DNA of 44,119 bases, from the UHGV virus genome UHGV-0175781; one strand, given 5' to 3'. The notes under the pieces are model-generated. The model saw only the letters and a program-made list of their open reading frames with translations, was not told the origin of the DNA and ran no database searches. Both the position numbers and the translations under genes were made by a program. Below, in pieces: positions 161 through 4,827 of the stretch (the stretch's first letter is position 1; every line of letters begins with the position of its first letter). The stretch is from a virus.

Positions 161-390
161 TTCAACTCCTCGATCAGATTCATACGAACAACACGGGCAG
201 AAAAAGCGTCACACACAAGATGACAACGGGCGGTCATTACAAGCCAGCCGGTAAGGTCCATGCCGAGCAATTGCTCCGGGCGACTGACCCGCCGCACTTT
301 GTTCTCCCTCGGGTTAATTTGGTAGCGTTTAACAATTTCGTCCACGACGCGCATACTGCGGTCAACGACTAAGATATTCATGTAGCTCAC
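157..390 (-). CDS. hypothetical protein (probable true start at ATG 381, about 75 aa)
   Basis: ORF track (GTG at 390, ATG at 381); stop overlaps the downstream ATG at 160 in an ATGA arrangement. Confidence 0.4.
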   Translation of the reverse strand: MSYMNILVVDRSMRVVDEIVKRYQINPRENKVRRVSRPEQLLGMDLTGWLVMTARCHLVCDAFSARVVRMNLIEELK

Positions 391-847
391 TCTCGCTCAT
401 TATTTCAATTTGTGCGCTGCCGCGGGGCGGCGCTTCGTCAAAGATTACCAATTGCTGGCACTTGTTATTGCTCGGCCCGACTTCACCGGTTACAGCGTGT
501 ATAAATCTGATACGCCAGTCCAGAAGAATTATCAGGTTTGCGGTCTTCCTGGCCAGCTTCGCCCACTTCGTCGACGTGTCCTGATTCAGTAGCATGACAG
601 TACGGCGTCCATGCGCCGCACACTCGACCCACGGCAGCGGATCGGAATACGGCGGGTTGCACCACTTCCACCCTTTCAACTCTGACCAGTCCACATCGAG
701 CGCGCTGTGCTCCGCCGTGAAGTAACGCGGTAACAGGTGGTTGGCATCGCTCGCCGCCATGTCATAACGGAATCTGTACTTCCGGCGCAGCGGTTTAAAT
801 AAAGCTGGCGGCGTGCGCCAGCTATCTTTTTGCTCACTCTTCTGCAT
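362..847 (-). CDS. DNA N6-adenine methyltransferase, phage Dam family
   Basis: 161 aa; N-terminal WRTPPALF and catalytic NPPY motif (WCNPPYS) typical of phage Dam-type MTases. Confidence 0.85.
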   Translation of the reverse strand: MQKSEQKDSWRTPPALFKPLRRKYRFRYDMAASDANHLLPRYFTAEHSALDVDWSELKGWKWCNPPYSDPLPWVECAAHGRRTVMLLNQDTSTKWAKLARKTANLIILLDWRIRFIHAVTGEVGPSNNKCQQLVIFDEAPPRGSAQIEIMSESELHEYLSR

Positions 848-1298
848 GGTCGGTGTCTATCGCATACAGGGCGATTTTATTGCCGGTCTTGAGAATGCGT
901 TGCACGCGCTTTGTCTCCTCGGCACTAAGCGGGCGAGCGTCCGGGTAGAAGCTGCCGTTTGTAGGGTTGCGCCACGCCATAAGCACCAAGTCTTTACGGT
1001 CGATCTCAGACGTGCGACCCTTCGGTCGCACGTACTCCTCCGCACGTTTGCAGTGCTCACGCAGCCCGTCGGCAGTGATGCGGTTTAGCGCAACGCTGGT
1101 TGTGTATCCGGTGCGCTGCATAATCCCCATCAGTTCGAAGAGAAGTACGAAGCGTTCCGCTAATTCCTCGCGCACTTTCTTCTCGCCTTCATAGAGAGCC
1201 TGGTTGGTGTCGGCCAACGCGTTCGCACGTTCGGCCTGTTCGCGGGCTTCGAGGCATTGCGCGGCCCAGTAATCTTTTTCTTCTTGTAAAATTTTCAT
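834..1298 (-). CDS. hypothetical protein
   Basis: 154-aa ORF in the co-directional minus-strand operon; no recognisable motif. Confidence 0.55.
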   Translation of the reverse strand: MKILQEEKDYWAAQCLEAREQAERANALADTNQALYEGEKKVREELAERFVLLFELMGIMQRTGYTTSVALNRITADGLREHCKRAEEYVRPKGRTSEIDRKDLVLMAWRNPTNGSFYPDARPLSAEETKRVQRILKTGNKIALYAIDTDHAEE

Positions 1299-1550
1299 CT
1301 ATTTAGTCTCCGTAGTGCGGATTTCATCGCGGGGGATAAATTTGCCGTCCATCTCTAACCAGCAGACACCATAGCGCCATTGGGTGTTGCGACCTGTTTG
1401 CTCTGCGTACACAGTCCGGCATTCGTAGCGTTCCGAGTAGTAGGCACCCGCGACACCAGCGGCAGGTACGCAAACACAAACGGCAATCATGAGGGTGAGG
1501 AGCACCCAAAATCGAAGGTCGCCGTCGTAGTCGAAAAATAATGATTTCAT
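1299..1550 (-). CDS. small membrane protein
   Basis: 83 aa with one hydrophobic helix (WVLLTLMIAVCVCVPAAGVAGAY); GGAGA SD upstream of ATG 1550. Confidence 0.55.
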   Translation of the reverse strand: MKSLFFDYDGDLRFWVLLTLMIAVCVCVPAAGVAGAYYSERYECRTVYAEQTGRNTQWRYGVCWLEMDGKFIPRDEIRTTETK

Positions 1551-1631: not shown

Positions 1632-1955
1632 TTACGAATAAAAATTTGGGTCGCGCGCAACGTCTACCAGATACAGGTTACTAATGCGGTTGCCATAGTG
1701 CCCTGGCGTGCGCTGGCGACACACAACGGCGTAGCCTGGAGGGATTGTATTGCCTGTCGCGATAATCCACGCCACGCGCGCTCCAGACAGCGTCTTGCCG
1801 TTGCACTCGATGCGCGTGCCACCATCGGCAGTGTTAAGGTTGCCGATCTTGCAGCCTGTGGATTTCAGGCGAATGACGCCGGTCTTGCTGTCGTAGGAAA
1901 AAAGCTGATTGGTCATTGCCACGGAAAAGTCGATGGCTTCGAATGTAGTATTCAT
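1632..1955 (-). CDS. HNH_3-like homing endonuclease-like protein, possibly degenerate
   Basis: 107 aa; pattern GK..ARVAW..TG...P.GY.VV....P...GNRISNLYLV resembles HNH_3 endonucleases but the usual His-Asp positions are replaced by CRQ. Confidence 0.4.
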   Translation of the reverse strand: MNTTFEAIDFSVAMTNQLFSYDSKTGVIRLKSTGCKIGNLNTADGGTRIECNGKTLSGARVAWIIATGNTIPPGYAVVCRQRTPGHYGNRISNLYLVDVARDPNFYS

Positions 1956-2647
1956 TTTAAATTTTCCTCATTGACCGCTATCGCGAAGCCGCGCGGGGTG
2001 AGCGACCTGATTAATTTGGTGCGGGCAGATTTGCCCCCGAGGCGACTATACTGCTTCGAGTACCCTTTTTCAACGAAAACAGGTTTCTTCTCTGGCATAC
2101 GGAAGCCGTTGCCGGTCCATAAGCAGGTCAGCTTCGGATATGAATCGCGGGCGTTGATGTATTCAGGGAATAACGGGTGTACGTCATCCTCTGGCAAATA
2201 GCCACCATACTCCCACGGGTCAAACGAGTGGTCCGGCTTACGCCATTGAGTGGATAGCACGCTGCGCGGATTCTCAATCATATATGGCACCTCAAAGAAA
2301 TCACCCAGGTAAGCGGCAATCTTCGCGGTGCGCACCGCCTTAAGCTGAAAGGCAGGGTCTTTAGCCCGCTTGCGCGGAAAAGCGGGCGCACCGCTAACTG
2401 CCAGATCCGTACACGGAGGGAACGCATATATGATATCCGGCGTACCGAAATCACCATTCATCGCGCGGTCCACGAAGTCCAGGTCTATAAACTCATTACG
2501 ATAGCGGATCCCGCGCCCATAAATCCGGTAGTCCAGGTACGATCCGTGGTCGGCTTCGGAGTAGTTGAAGCAAAAACACTTATGACCCATCTCGGCAGCA
2601 CGCTCAATCATCAAGCCGCTGCCGTCAAATAATGACCAGATAATCAT
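1952..2647 (-). CDS. short DNA (cytosine-5)-methyltransferase-like protein
   Basis: 231 aa; motif I FDGSG (FxGxG), motif IV FPPC..LAVSGA (cf. GPPCQ.FS.AG), motif VI ENP (cf. ENV); too short for a canonical target-recognition domain. Confidence 0.5.
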   Translation of the reverse strand: MIIWSLFDGSGLMIERAAEMGHKCFCFNYSEADHGSYLDYRIYGRGIRYRNEFIDLDFVDRAMNGDFGTPDIIYAFPPCTDLAVSGAPAFPRKRAKDPAFQLKAVRTAKIAAYLGDFFEVPYMIENPRSVLSTQWRKPDHSFDPWEYGGYLPEDDVHPLFPEYINARDSYPKLTCLWTGNGFRMPEKKPVFVEKGYSKQYSRLGGKSARTKLIRSLTPRGFAIAVNEENLK

Positions 2648-4068
2648 TTGCGCGCCTTTTTAGCTTTCATGTATTCCATCAAGTCGTCCTGAATATCTCG
2701 CTTACTGTCGCGACGCTCGGCGACCAGTTCGTCCAGTGTCCCGCGCGCCTGGATAATATAGACGAATACTGGACGGGGGTGTCCGGCTTGCATCTGGCGA
2801 ACCGGCCCTATACGCTCCACGATCTGCGAAAAGTGCTCAAAGTTCCAGGTATCGGAGAAGATAGCAAGGTGGTGCCCGCCATCCTGCAGGTTGAGGCCGT
2901 GACCCGCCGAGGCAGGGTGCGCAAACATGATGGGGATCTCGCCCCTATTCCACGCTTCCATATCCTTATTGCCCTGCTTGCCCTTGCCCAACGCAACGCC
3001 GTGCGGGAATTTCTTCTTGAGACGCGCCAGATCATGCTTGTATTGGTACGCGACGAGCAACGGTGCGCCGTTCAACTCCTCCGCGATACTTTCCAGCGCG
3101 TCCAGTTTAGCGTCGTGAATTTTCACCCATTCGTCGGTCCGTTCGCCGTCTTCGTCGACCTTATACACGGCCCCGGAAGCAAGCTGAAGGCACTTAATGG
3201 TCTTCGAAGCAGCGTTCGCCGCCTCCACCGTTCCGCTTTCCAGTTCGGCAAATAGCTCGCTTTCAAACTGGTCGTAGATCTTGCGGGCTTTCTTCGGCAG
3301 GTCCACAACAACCGGCGTATAGATTGGCTTGTCACATCCGAAGTATTCAGCCGCATCAACGGTGAGCGATACGTCAGACAGGCGTTGTTGTATTTCTTTC
3401 TCGGAGTTCTTAAGCGGGGCGTGCTGCATAGTAAAGCTGCCAGGCTTAACAGGCTTGCTAATAAACCAGCGATCAGTGAATGCCTTATAACTACTGCCGA
3501 GGCGTTCGCCGCCGTCGACAAACCACGTCTGACCCCACAGGTCTTTCAGTCCGTTTGGTGCGGGTGTGCCGGTCAGGTTAATCCAGCGCTTGACGTGCTT
3601 ATGTGCGATCGCTGCCAGCGCACGGGCACGCTTACTTCCCTGCTTGCTTCGATAACCTTTCAGCTTAGTGGATTCATCGGCAACAACGACCGTAAAGGGC
3701 CACGCATCGCCGTAATAGTCAACCAGCCACTCAACTACATCATAGTTAACACAAACTACGTTAGCGCCGCTCTCAAGCGCGGCTATACGGTCTTTTTCAG
3801 ACCCGGTGCCGTCTACTACCAGCAAGGCGGGGAATCGCCATTTTTCCTGTTCCGGGGGCCATGTGCCAGATGCAACGCGCAGCGGGGCCAGCACCAGTAC
3901 GCGGTCCTCCTGGTTGGACAGGATACCGGTCTGGAACATTTTATTCAGCGCCCACATGGTCGCGCCGGTTTTACCCGACCCCATTGTCGCCCATATATTG
4001 CATCGCTTATGCTTGAGGATGAACGCGGTTATCAACTTCTGATATTCGCGACGTCGGAAACGTGCCAT
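2644..4068 (-). CDS. SNF2/DEAD-like superfamily 2 ATP-dependent helicase (ORF extends to GTG at 4158; ATG at 4068 preferred)
   Basis: Walker A GSGKTGAT, DExx box VVADESTKLK, C-terminal SNF2-like helicase region (PASAGHGLNLQDGG...); start at 4068 avoids overlap with the well-supported gene 4073..4297. Confidence 0.8.
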   Translation of the reverse strand: MARFRRREYQKLITAFILKHKRCNIWATMGSGKTGATMWALNKMFQTGILSNQEDRVLVLAPLRVASGTWPPEQEKWRFPALLVVDGTGSEKDRIAALESGANVVCVNYDVVEWLVDYYGDAWPFTVVVADESTKLKGYRSKQGSKRARALAAIAHKHVKRWINLTGTPAPNGLKDLWGQTWFVDGGERLGSSYKAFTDRWFISKPVKPGSFTMQHAPLKNSEKEIQQRLSDVSLTVDAAEYFGCDKPIYTPVVVDLPKKARKIYDQFESELFAELESGTVEAANAASKTIKCLQLASGAVYKVDEDGERTDEWVKIHDAKLDALESIAEELNGAPLLVAYQYKHDLARLKKKFPHGVALGKGKQGNKDMEAWNRGEIPIMFAHPASAGHGLNLQDGGHHLAIFSDTWNFEHFSQIVERIGPVRQMQAGHPRPVFVYIIQARGTLDELVAERRDSKRDIQDDLMEYMKAKKARK

Positions 4069-4072
4069 ATCT

Positions 4073-4297
4073 TTATTCCGCCTTTTTCCAGACTTCGGTT
4101 TCACTGTTCCAGTTCCTTTTTGTGGCGTCATAGTTGGTGCTGTGCCCGATGTGTACACCCGTCGCCCGGAAGCTATTAAATTTTTGCCAGCACACCGTTA
4201 ACGGCAGCGGGTTATTCATGCCCGCGATAAACCATACGCGATCGCCTGGTTTGCATTCGCCCAGTGTGGTGAGTCGATAATGTTCTTTCATCGTCAT
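4073..4297 (-). CDS. hypothetical protein
   Basis: 74-aa ORF with GGAGA SD directly upstream of ATG 4297. Confidence 0.6.
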   Translation of the reverse strand: MTMKEHYRLTTLGECKPGDRVWFIAGMNNPLPLTVCWQKFNSFRATGVHIGHSTNYDATKRNWNSETEVWKKAE

Positions 4298-4303
4298 GTC
4301 TCC

Positions 4304-4327
4304 AAAAAATGGCGGGACAAGCCCGCC
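4304..4327 (-). terminator. hairpin (GGCGGG-loop-CCCGCC) plus T6 on minus strand; intra-operon attenuator-like
   Basis: seen in sequence between genes 4335..4508 and 4073..4297; contains one GGCGGGACAA iteron-like unit. Confidence 0.35.
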
Positions 4328-4334
4328 GTATTAA

Positions 4335-4508
4335 TTATTTTTGCTCTGCTCGGTAGCGGCGCTGCCGTTCGCGCTCTTTTTTATTGCGGCACGATTTGCA
4401 CTCTGCCCGATACCCGTCCGGGCTTCGCGCAGTCTTACCGGTGTATTTATGGAACTGGGACAGCGGTTTAACGCAGCCGCAATTACTGCAACGTTTTTCT
4501 TCAACCAT
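4335..4508 (-). CDS. small zinc-ribbon-like protein with basic C-terminus (probable start at internal ATG; ORF extends to 4580)
   Basis: CSNCGC...C..C cysteine pattern followed by KKERERQRRYR; GAGGA SD before the internal ATG. Confidence 0.45.
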   Translation of the reverse strand: MVEEKRCSNCGCVKPLSQFHKYTGKTARSPDGYRAECKSCRNKKERERQRRYRAEQK

Positions 4509-4548
4509 TTCTAAAATCCTCGATAGTGCTAACCGGCCCACTATACCG

Positions 4549-4827
4549 CTACGCGACCAACTCAGCAACCAATAAATCACAGTCTGCTATGTTGTCGATA
4601 ACGCGAACGTCCGCACCGCGGCGGGCCATTCGCTCATGTTCTCGTATCTGGTGCGGCTTCGGTTTTCCTCCGGGGCGCTTCACTTCGACGAACACTATTT
4701 TGCCGTTGATGATGATAATCAGATCGGGCGCACCCGCGCGCCCCTCCCATGCCACTTTACGGCAGAATCCGCCTACGGCTTTAACCAACTTCATAAGGTG
4801 ACTTTGGATCTTGCCTTCTGGTGTCAT
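4549..4827 (-). CDS. VRR-NUC domain nuclease (PD-(D/E)xK fold)
   Basis: 92 aa; GAPDLIII...GKIVFVEVKRPGG matches the VRR-NUC D...E.K core. Confidence 0.7.
   Translation of the reverse strand: MTPEGKIQSHLMKLVKAVGGFCRKVAWEGRAGAPDLIIIINGKIVFVEVKRPGGKPKPHQIREHERMARRGADVRVIDNIADCDLLVAELVA

Follow-up and report, generated by a model that had tools for sequence, protein, structure and literature searches.

The viral genome UHGV-0175781 (44,119 nucleotides; this whole stretch is the window in what follows) carries on its minus strand, at 1952..2647, an open reading frame (ORF) whose 231-aa product is very probably a small stand-alone (orphan) DNA cytosine-C5 methyltransferase, dependent on S-adenosylmethionine (SAM) and belonging to a phage-specific family. 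Our analysis establishes that the gene is real, that its product is a member of this family with the predicted fold of a C5-methyltransferase, and that its catalytic residues are conserved. A first-pass annotation of the window had presented the gene as unannotated and odd. It is already known: cytosine methyltransferase is its routine annotation in deposited genomes of the genus Dhillonvirus, many of which label it 'putative DNA cytosine methyltransferase', and the family has an experimentally studied member, the Dcm protein of phage K42.

A family of short C5-methyltransferases

The motifs named in the first-pass annotation are all found in the translation: motif I, FDGSG, at residues 7-11; motif IV, FPPC-T, at residues 76-80, with the catalytic Cys79; and motif VI, ENP, at residues 125-127. 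The protein matches PHROG 757, 'DNA methyltransferase', with an E-value of 4.3e-82 over residues 1-229. Homologues located by tblastn are spread over 1,512 phage records; identity reaches at least 95% in 146 of these, and 576 are 'Escherichia' phage records. A large protein collection yielded 2,882 clusters with E up to 0.001; a profile built from 28 relatives and searched against 1.84 billion cluster representatives retrieved 1,942 proteins at E ≤ 0.001, including 178 at E ≤ 1e-30. The 66 members that were aligned have a median length of 237 aa (range 210-260), and the best 150 cluster representatives also fall mostly within 210-260 aa. Since most family members are of this size, the short length of the window protein is a property of the family and not the result of truncation.

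Conservation was assessed in the alignment of these 66 diverse members, which are 33-55% identical to the window protein. Cys79, Glu125 and Pro127 are invariant, and Phe76, Pro77, Thr80, Asn126 and Lys172 are at least 90% conserved. The threonine that follows the PC dipeptide, where canonical enzymes have glutamine, had been noted as an anomaly in the first-pass annotation; the residue is indeed there, but the alignment identifies it as a conserved family variant, at least 90% of the members having threonine, and not as a local mutation or a mark of inactivation. When the 66-member family was compared by hhalign with nine canonical C5-methyltransferases (E. coli Dcm and eight phage enzymes), the match had a probability of 93.4% and an E-value of 2.6e-7 over 118 columns, and it paired FDGSG with FAGIGG, FPPCT with FPCQ, and ENP with ENV. 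Of the 28 relatives, 18 individually match PF00145, the Pfam family of M.HhaI, M.HaeIII and E. coli Dcm, with a best E-value of 1.3e-6. Neither the protein by itself nor two profiles of its family gave a significant match when searched against PDB sequences; among the insignificant ones was M.HaeIII (E 0.7-0.8 over motifs I-IV), whose FSGAGG is aligned with FDGSG. A match to the ToxD kinase in the PDB was judged to be chance, and PADLOC gave no model for the cytosine enzyme.

The ORF is a functional gene under strong purifying selection. It differs from its orthologues in the phages StarDew and SSL-2009a at 43 and 49 nucleotides, respectively, and in only 3 and 6 amino acids. The corresponding ratios of non-synonymous to synonymous substitution rates (dN/dS) are 0.024 and 0.049, with dS of about 0.31-0.33.

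AlphaFold2, run on the family alignment, gave a confident model with a predicted local distance difference test score (pLDDT) of 89.4 and a predicted template modelling score (pTM) of 0.89. Its top matches in a Foldseek search of the PDB were the methyltransferase domains of DNMT3A and DNMT3B (E ~1e-6), and the closest viral models in BFVD are named DNA-cytosine methylases. Structural scores against individual enzymes were as follows:

DNMT3B, 13.6
Phage carboxymethyltransferase CmoX, 12.6
Prophage CP-933R enzyme, 12.2
DNMT3A, 12.1
DNMT1 (two entries), 11.0 and 10.9
M.HhaI, 11.0
M.HaeIII, 10.9
EhMeth, 10.7

On this model the 231-aa protein has the C5-methyltransferase fold; the first-pass annotation had asked whether a fold search might instead lead to an unrelated SAM-dependent enzyme, and the Foldseek matches and structural scores assign it to the C5-methyltransferases. 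The likeness is one of fold: sequence identity between the window protein and the DNMT3A and DNMT3B catalytic domains is 12-17%, and the formation of oligomers with DNMT3L and the possession of chromatin-reading domains are features of the DNMT3 enzymes.

Some family members are longer. Ten of 292-453 aa were scanned for fused domains and none gave a Pfam match. The proteins P0237, P0258 and P0259, of 400-450 aa, have N-terminal extensions of 175-200 residues, again with no Pfam match, which are putative fused domains. Copies of the enzyme that are 43-53% identical also occur in several 'Campylobacter phage' records (MG0656xx), with genomes of 47-143 kb, whose host labels look doubtful.

Reaction chemistry and the K42 Dcm protein

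The gene bas06_0055 of phage KarlJaspers (Bas06, MZ501090) is 711 bp long and is labelled 'Dcm-like C5 cytosine methyltransferase'. Its product is 54% identical to the window protein from end to end (E 1e-86; 236 against 231 aa). Phage K42, whose genome is reported to be 95.4% identical to that of KarlJaspers, likewise has a 711-bp dcm gene, and this gene has been studied in relation to the retron Ec86 (bioRxiv 10.1101/2023.08.16.553469). According to that preprint, all K42 mutants that escape Ec86 are mutated in dcm; expression of K42 dcm is toxic only alongside the retron, and the over-expressed phage enzyme is itself toxic; and a Dcm of this kind is encoded by 34 of the 35 phages that are sensitive to Ec86. 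Mass spectrometry coupled to liquid chromatography (LC-MS) in the same work detected high levels of 5-methylcytosine (5mC) on the multicopy single-stranded DNA (msDNA) of Ec86 with wild-type K42 dcm, and both the modification and the toxicity with Ec86 were lost in a C82A/E128A/K175A/K176A mutant, in which Lys175 and Lys176 had been modelled as substrate-binding residues (10.1101/2023.08.16.553469). The study has since been published (Wang et al., Cell Rep 2024, 43:114857), and subsequent papers refer to it for the activation of Eco1 by a phage cytosine methyltransferase.

The residues mutated in K42 Dcm, Cys82, Glu128, Lys175 and Lys176, correspond to Cys79, Glu125, Lys172 and Leu173 of the window protein. 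The K42/KarlJaspers enzyme belongs to the same family and has the same architecture, sharing the catalytic Cys, the Glu of the ENP motif and the first of the two lysines, and KarlJaspers also encodes a Dam-like enzyme beside its short Dcm, as the window genome does. The phages themselves belong to different groups, the window to Dhillonvirus and K42 and KarlJaspers to Hanrivervirus of the Drexlerviridae. Both 5mC formation and triggering of the retron are thus reported for K42 Dcm, a relative of the protein that is 54% identical to ours. Because of the LC-MS and mutant data for K42 Dcm, the chemistry of the family is taken to be ordinary C5 methylation of DNA, and the non-canonical substrate or chemistry that the first-pass annotation had entertained finds no support.

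We infer the activity of the window protein, its target sequence and its role against restriction along the following lines. As in all C5-methyltransferases, the target cytosine would be flipped out of the DNA; Cys79 of the PC motif would attack C6 while N3 is protonated by Glu125 from the ENP motif, which is of the ENV type; SAM, held by the FDGSG loop, would donate its methyl group to C5, and the enzyme would be freed by beta-elimination. The gene would be expressed together with replication genes (helicase and polymerase) and with a Dam-family methyltransferase, so that replicating phage DNA would gain both 5mC and N6-methyladenine (m6A), which would most likely protect it against host restriction enzymes. 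The same activity may be a liability, as the close family member from K42 methylates the stem-loop of Ec86/Eco1 msDNA and abortive infection follows.

The structural comparison raises the alternative that the C5-methyltransferase fold serves a different transfer here, either carboxymethylation from carboxy-SAM, which E. coli CmoA could supply, or the first step of a hypermodification. What prompts the idea is the structural closeness of CmoX (12.6), together with its selection of carboxy-SAM by means of an Arg that replaces the motif-X Asn. Arg219 of the window protein is a candidate for the equivalent position, that of CmoX Arg350 and M.HhaI Asn304. CmoX is a phage DNA cytosine C5-carboxymethyltransferase with an SPPC motif, a motif-X Arg350, and linked CmoA and CmoY genes (PMC12783734). 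However, DNMT3B, a true methyltransferase, outscores it (13.6), and the SPPC signature of CmoX is FPPC in the window protein, where Phe76 is at least 90% conserved across the family. A complete Dhillonvirus genome has no annotated gene for CmoA, a CmoY-type protein, an amide ligase, TET or a glycosyltransferase, and the K42 enzyme gives 5mC by LC-MS. The two proteins also differ in size, CmoX having 333 residues in PDB chain 8yf3 against 231 here. We regard a transfer of this kind as very unlikely.

A DNMT2-like enzyme that methylates cytosine C5 in RNA (tRNA) rather than in DNA is more improbable still. DNA enzymes have the higher structural scores (DNMT3B 13.6, DNMT3A 12.1 and M.HhaI 11.0), the related K42 Dcm methylates msDNA, and the gene lies among DNA replication genes and near that of a DNA adenine methyltransferase.

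The compressed C-terminal half and the target sequence

The window protein differs from canonical C5-methyltransferases in its C-terminal half. The nine canonical enzymes are 287-472 aa long, against 231 aa here, and have ENV where the short family has ENP. A motif-IX-like block, IRSLTPR, is present at residues 213-219, and the protein ends 12 residues after it; the last helix of the AlphaFold2 model, a candidate to stand in structurally for motif X, spans residues 219-229. In sub-alignments of the C-terminal half, hhalign matched RTKLIRSLTPR weakly to the canonical RRLTPR (11 columns, E 0.049); global-mode hhalign of this half against motifs VIII-X was meaningless and was set aside. The distance from ENP to IRSLTPR is about 87 aa in the short family, whereas 120-200 aa separate ENV from motif IX (RRLTPRE) in the nine canonical enzymes, and the tail from the start of the motif-IX-like block is about 21 aa, compared with the 51-73 residues that follow motif IX in the canonical enzymes and bear motif X, GN(S/A)V. 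The first-pass annotation had called the protein too short for a normal target-recognition domain (TRD), and these distances bear it out: the target-recognition region appears unusually small, with no room for a normal TRD, and motif X is missing by sequence as well. DNMT3A and DNMT3B also have a small TRD.

The part that lies between motifs VI and IX is well conserved within the family. Over segment 143-185, Pro144, Tyr170, Trp177 and Pro185 are invariant in the 66 members, and Asp168, Lys172 and Thr174 are at least 90% conserved. The conserved pattern D168-x-Y170-x-K172-x-T174 is a candidate for motif VIII (QxRxR), although it lies beyond the region of significant alignment. The conservation of this segment suggests a single mode of DNA recognition common to the whole family.

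The target of that recognition is a separate matter. Strain MG1655 is itself dcm-plus. All K42 assays were carried out in this strain, in which the retron does not trigger itself and the msDNA is low in 5mC when the phage enzyme is absent; defence disappears if CCTGG in the msDNA stem-loop is altered (10.1101/2023.08.16.553469). The same preprint assumed the CCWGG target on the basis of existing knowledge about host Dcm, without mapping it, and does not discuss host Dcm (10.1101/2023.08.16.553469). Either host Dcm has poor access to the msDNA, or the phage enzyme differs from it in target or in efficiency. A tentative reading, which we consider possible but doubtful, is that the family represents a minimal C5-methyltransferase without canonical motif X, with a conserved, compressed recognition region and a real target that is shorter than, or different from, CCWGG. 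This reading would fit the K42 reports that Ec86 is not self-triggered in MG1655, that msDNA 5mC is low without the phage enzyme, and that over-expression is toxic.

Site statistics were calculated for the whole window. Neither CCWGG (141 sites, observed/expected 0.92) nor GATC (169 sites, 0.88) is avoided, and CCGG and GCGC are also near expectation. GGCC is strongly under-represented, with 148 sites observed against 241 expected (0.61), and CTGCAG (0.46), CCCGGG (0.46), GGWCC (0.72) and GANTC (0.76) are depleted. The overall picture is one of restriction-site avoidance from which the sites presumably modified by the phage's own methyltransferases are exempt. The near-expected counts of CCWGG and GATC are compatible with self-protection, but they prove nothing about the target, and word statistics do not identify it because many other cytosine-containing words are near expectation too.

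Several results weigh against the assignment of the window protein as an active DNA cytosine-C5 methyltransferase of the K42 Dcm type. The 231-aa protein has no match in Pfam, at E up to 1, or in NCBIfam, and significant alignment of its family with the canonical enzymes is confined to motifs I-VI in the N-terminal half. The protein lacks motif X, GN(S/A)V, and a GN[SAG][VI] string occurs in only 2 of the 66 family members. Lys176 of K42 Dcm is replaced by Leu173, at a position that is variable in the family. No close kinship with E. coli Dcm was found, BLASTP giving an E-value of 0.41 and hhalign of the family profile against Dcm alone a probability of 0.8%. Searches of the literature turned up no methylome data for DNA of Dhillonvirus or Drexlerviridae phages, and the BASEL study saw no simple relation, in the related Drexlerviridae, between the methyltransferase genes that phages carry and their resistance to restriction (PMC8594841). 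With regard to the name, tblastn with Dcm found 10 'Escherichia' phage records, against 576 with the window protein; 'Dcm-like', judged by these comparisons, is a label and not a statement of close kinship.

Among the same observations, the lack of canonical motif X, the short distance from motif VI to motif IX (about 87 against 120-200 aa), the short tail (about 21 against 51-73 aa) and the lack of a Pfam match would also be expected of a catalytically weak or inactive remnant, without a full TRD, that is kept for DNA binding or regulation. This explanation is hard to reconcile with the invariance of the catalytic Cys and Glu in 66 diverse members and the very low dN/dS of the gene. K42 Dcm, just as short at 236 aa, shows activity in vivo that depends on its catalytic residues, and DNMT3A and DNMT3B, the best structural matches, are active enzymes. 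A remnant is in our judgement unlikely, and we retain the assignment as a DNA cytosine-C5 methyltransferase.

For annotation, the case matters in that Pfam and NCBIfam miss a protein whose family is among the methyltransferase families most often carried by enterobacterial phages. Carriage of the gene would predict both 5mC in virion DNA and sensitivity to the retron Ec86/Eco1. A C5-methyltransferase of some 230 residues that may achieve recognition and SAM binding without canonical motif X is moderately interesting to enzyme engineers and to those who study phage anti-restriction.

Gene neighbourhood and the Dam-family methyltransferase

The first 8 kb of the window matched 164 phage records, 145 of them with at least 80% query coverage at about 90-93% identity. 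Nearly all of these 145 belong to Dhillonvirus and are phages of Escherichia or Shigella, for example SSL-2009a and StarDew, and on this nucleotide similarity the window is the genome of a Dhillonvirus coliphage. One record, OQ221563.1 ('Acinetobacter phage NJ01'), aligns with 98% of these 8 kb at 92% identity, and its host label looks doubtful.

The cytosine methyltransferase gene and its neighbours, in the direction of transcription, are:

2644..4158, minus strand: SNF2/DEAD-type DNA helicase, immediately upstream of the methyltransferase gene (Pfam SNF2-rel_dom 7.8e-11; PHROG 62 3e-156)
1952..2647, minus strand: short C5-cytosine DNA methyltransferase, 231 aa, ATG start (PHROG 757 family, 'Dcm-like')
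1632..1955, minus strand: HNH endonuclease, 107 aa, immediately downstream of the methyltransferase gene (PHROG 99 2e-16; Pfam HNH_3 only 0.07)
1299..1550 and 834..1298, minus strand: two small ORFs between the HNH and Dam genes
362..847, minus strand: Dam-family N6-adenine DNA methyltransferase, 161 aa (PF05869 'Dam'; NPPY at residues 64-67)

The helicase stop and the methyltransferase start share 4 bp at 2644-2647 (ATGA), as do the methyltransferase stop and the HNH start at 1952-1955. The cytosine methyltransferase and Dam genes lie in one uninterrupted minus-strand block, separated by the HNH gene and the two small ORFs, and the minus strand from 4158 to 362 has a single terminator-like site, which is weak and falls at 823-803, within the 5' end of the coding sequence for Dam. 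Co-transcription of the two methyltransferase genes, which the first-pass annotation had placed in the same operon, is therefore plausible.

The assignment of the 362..847 product as a Dam-type methyltransferase in the same gene block also holds. It matches PF05869 at 3.7e-36, with 124.8 bits against a cut-off of 28.1, and has the NPPY motif; it further matches PHROG 111 (8.4e-56) and the PADLOC orphan methyltransferase model (6.2e-11), and its TIGR01712 score of 86.9 bits is below the cut-off of 97.05. Homology to the Dam family on the one hand and to the short Dcm family on the other gives good support to the proposal that this phage would modify its DNA in two ways, by two DNA methylation activities.

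Among the sigma-70-like sites of the first 9 kb, the best match (TTGAAA-17-TATAGT, 10/12) is at 2073-2045 on the minus strand. It sits inside the cytosine methyltransferase gene and precedes the HNH start by about 90 nt, and the number of sigma-70-like sites in the first 9 kb is not above shuffle expectation. The 154-aa product of 834..1298 (minus strand) matches PHROG 10530, 'DNA ligase', at 3.7e-95, and SSL-2009a uses the same name for it. Since a ligase would have to be much larger and the protein has no Pfam domain, this name appears to be an annotation error that was copied from record to record.

Upstream of the helicase gene, a G+C-rich hairpin on both strands at 4309-4329, GGCGGGCTTGTCCCGCC, is followed by T-runs on either strand. 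This bidirectional terminator-like site lies between ORFs 4073..4297 (74 aa) and 4335..4580 (81 aa), and interrupts an otherwise continuous minus-strand block of replication genes. The 81-aa ORF at 4335..4580 (minus strand) encodes CxxC...CxxC cysteine pairs and has no Pfam match. SSL-2009a has a coding sequence annotated 'Lar-like restriction alleviation protein' at about the same place, between its helicase and polymerase genes, and if the 81-aa ORF is truly Lar-like it would bring the phage's anti-restriction functions to three, the two methyltransferases included.
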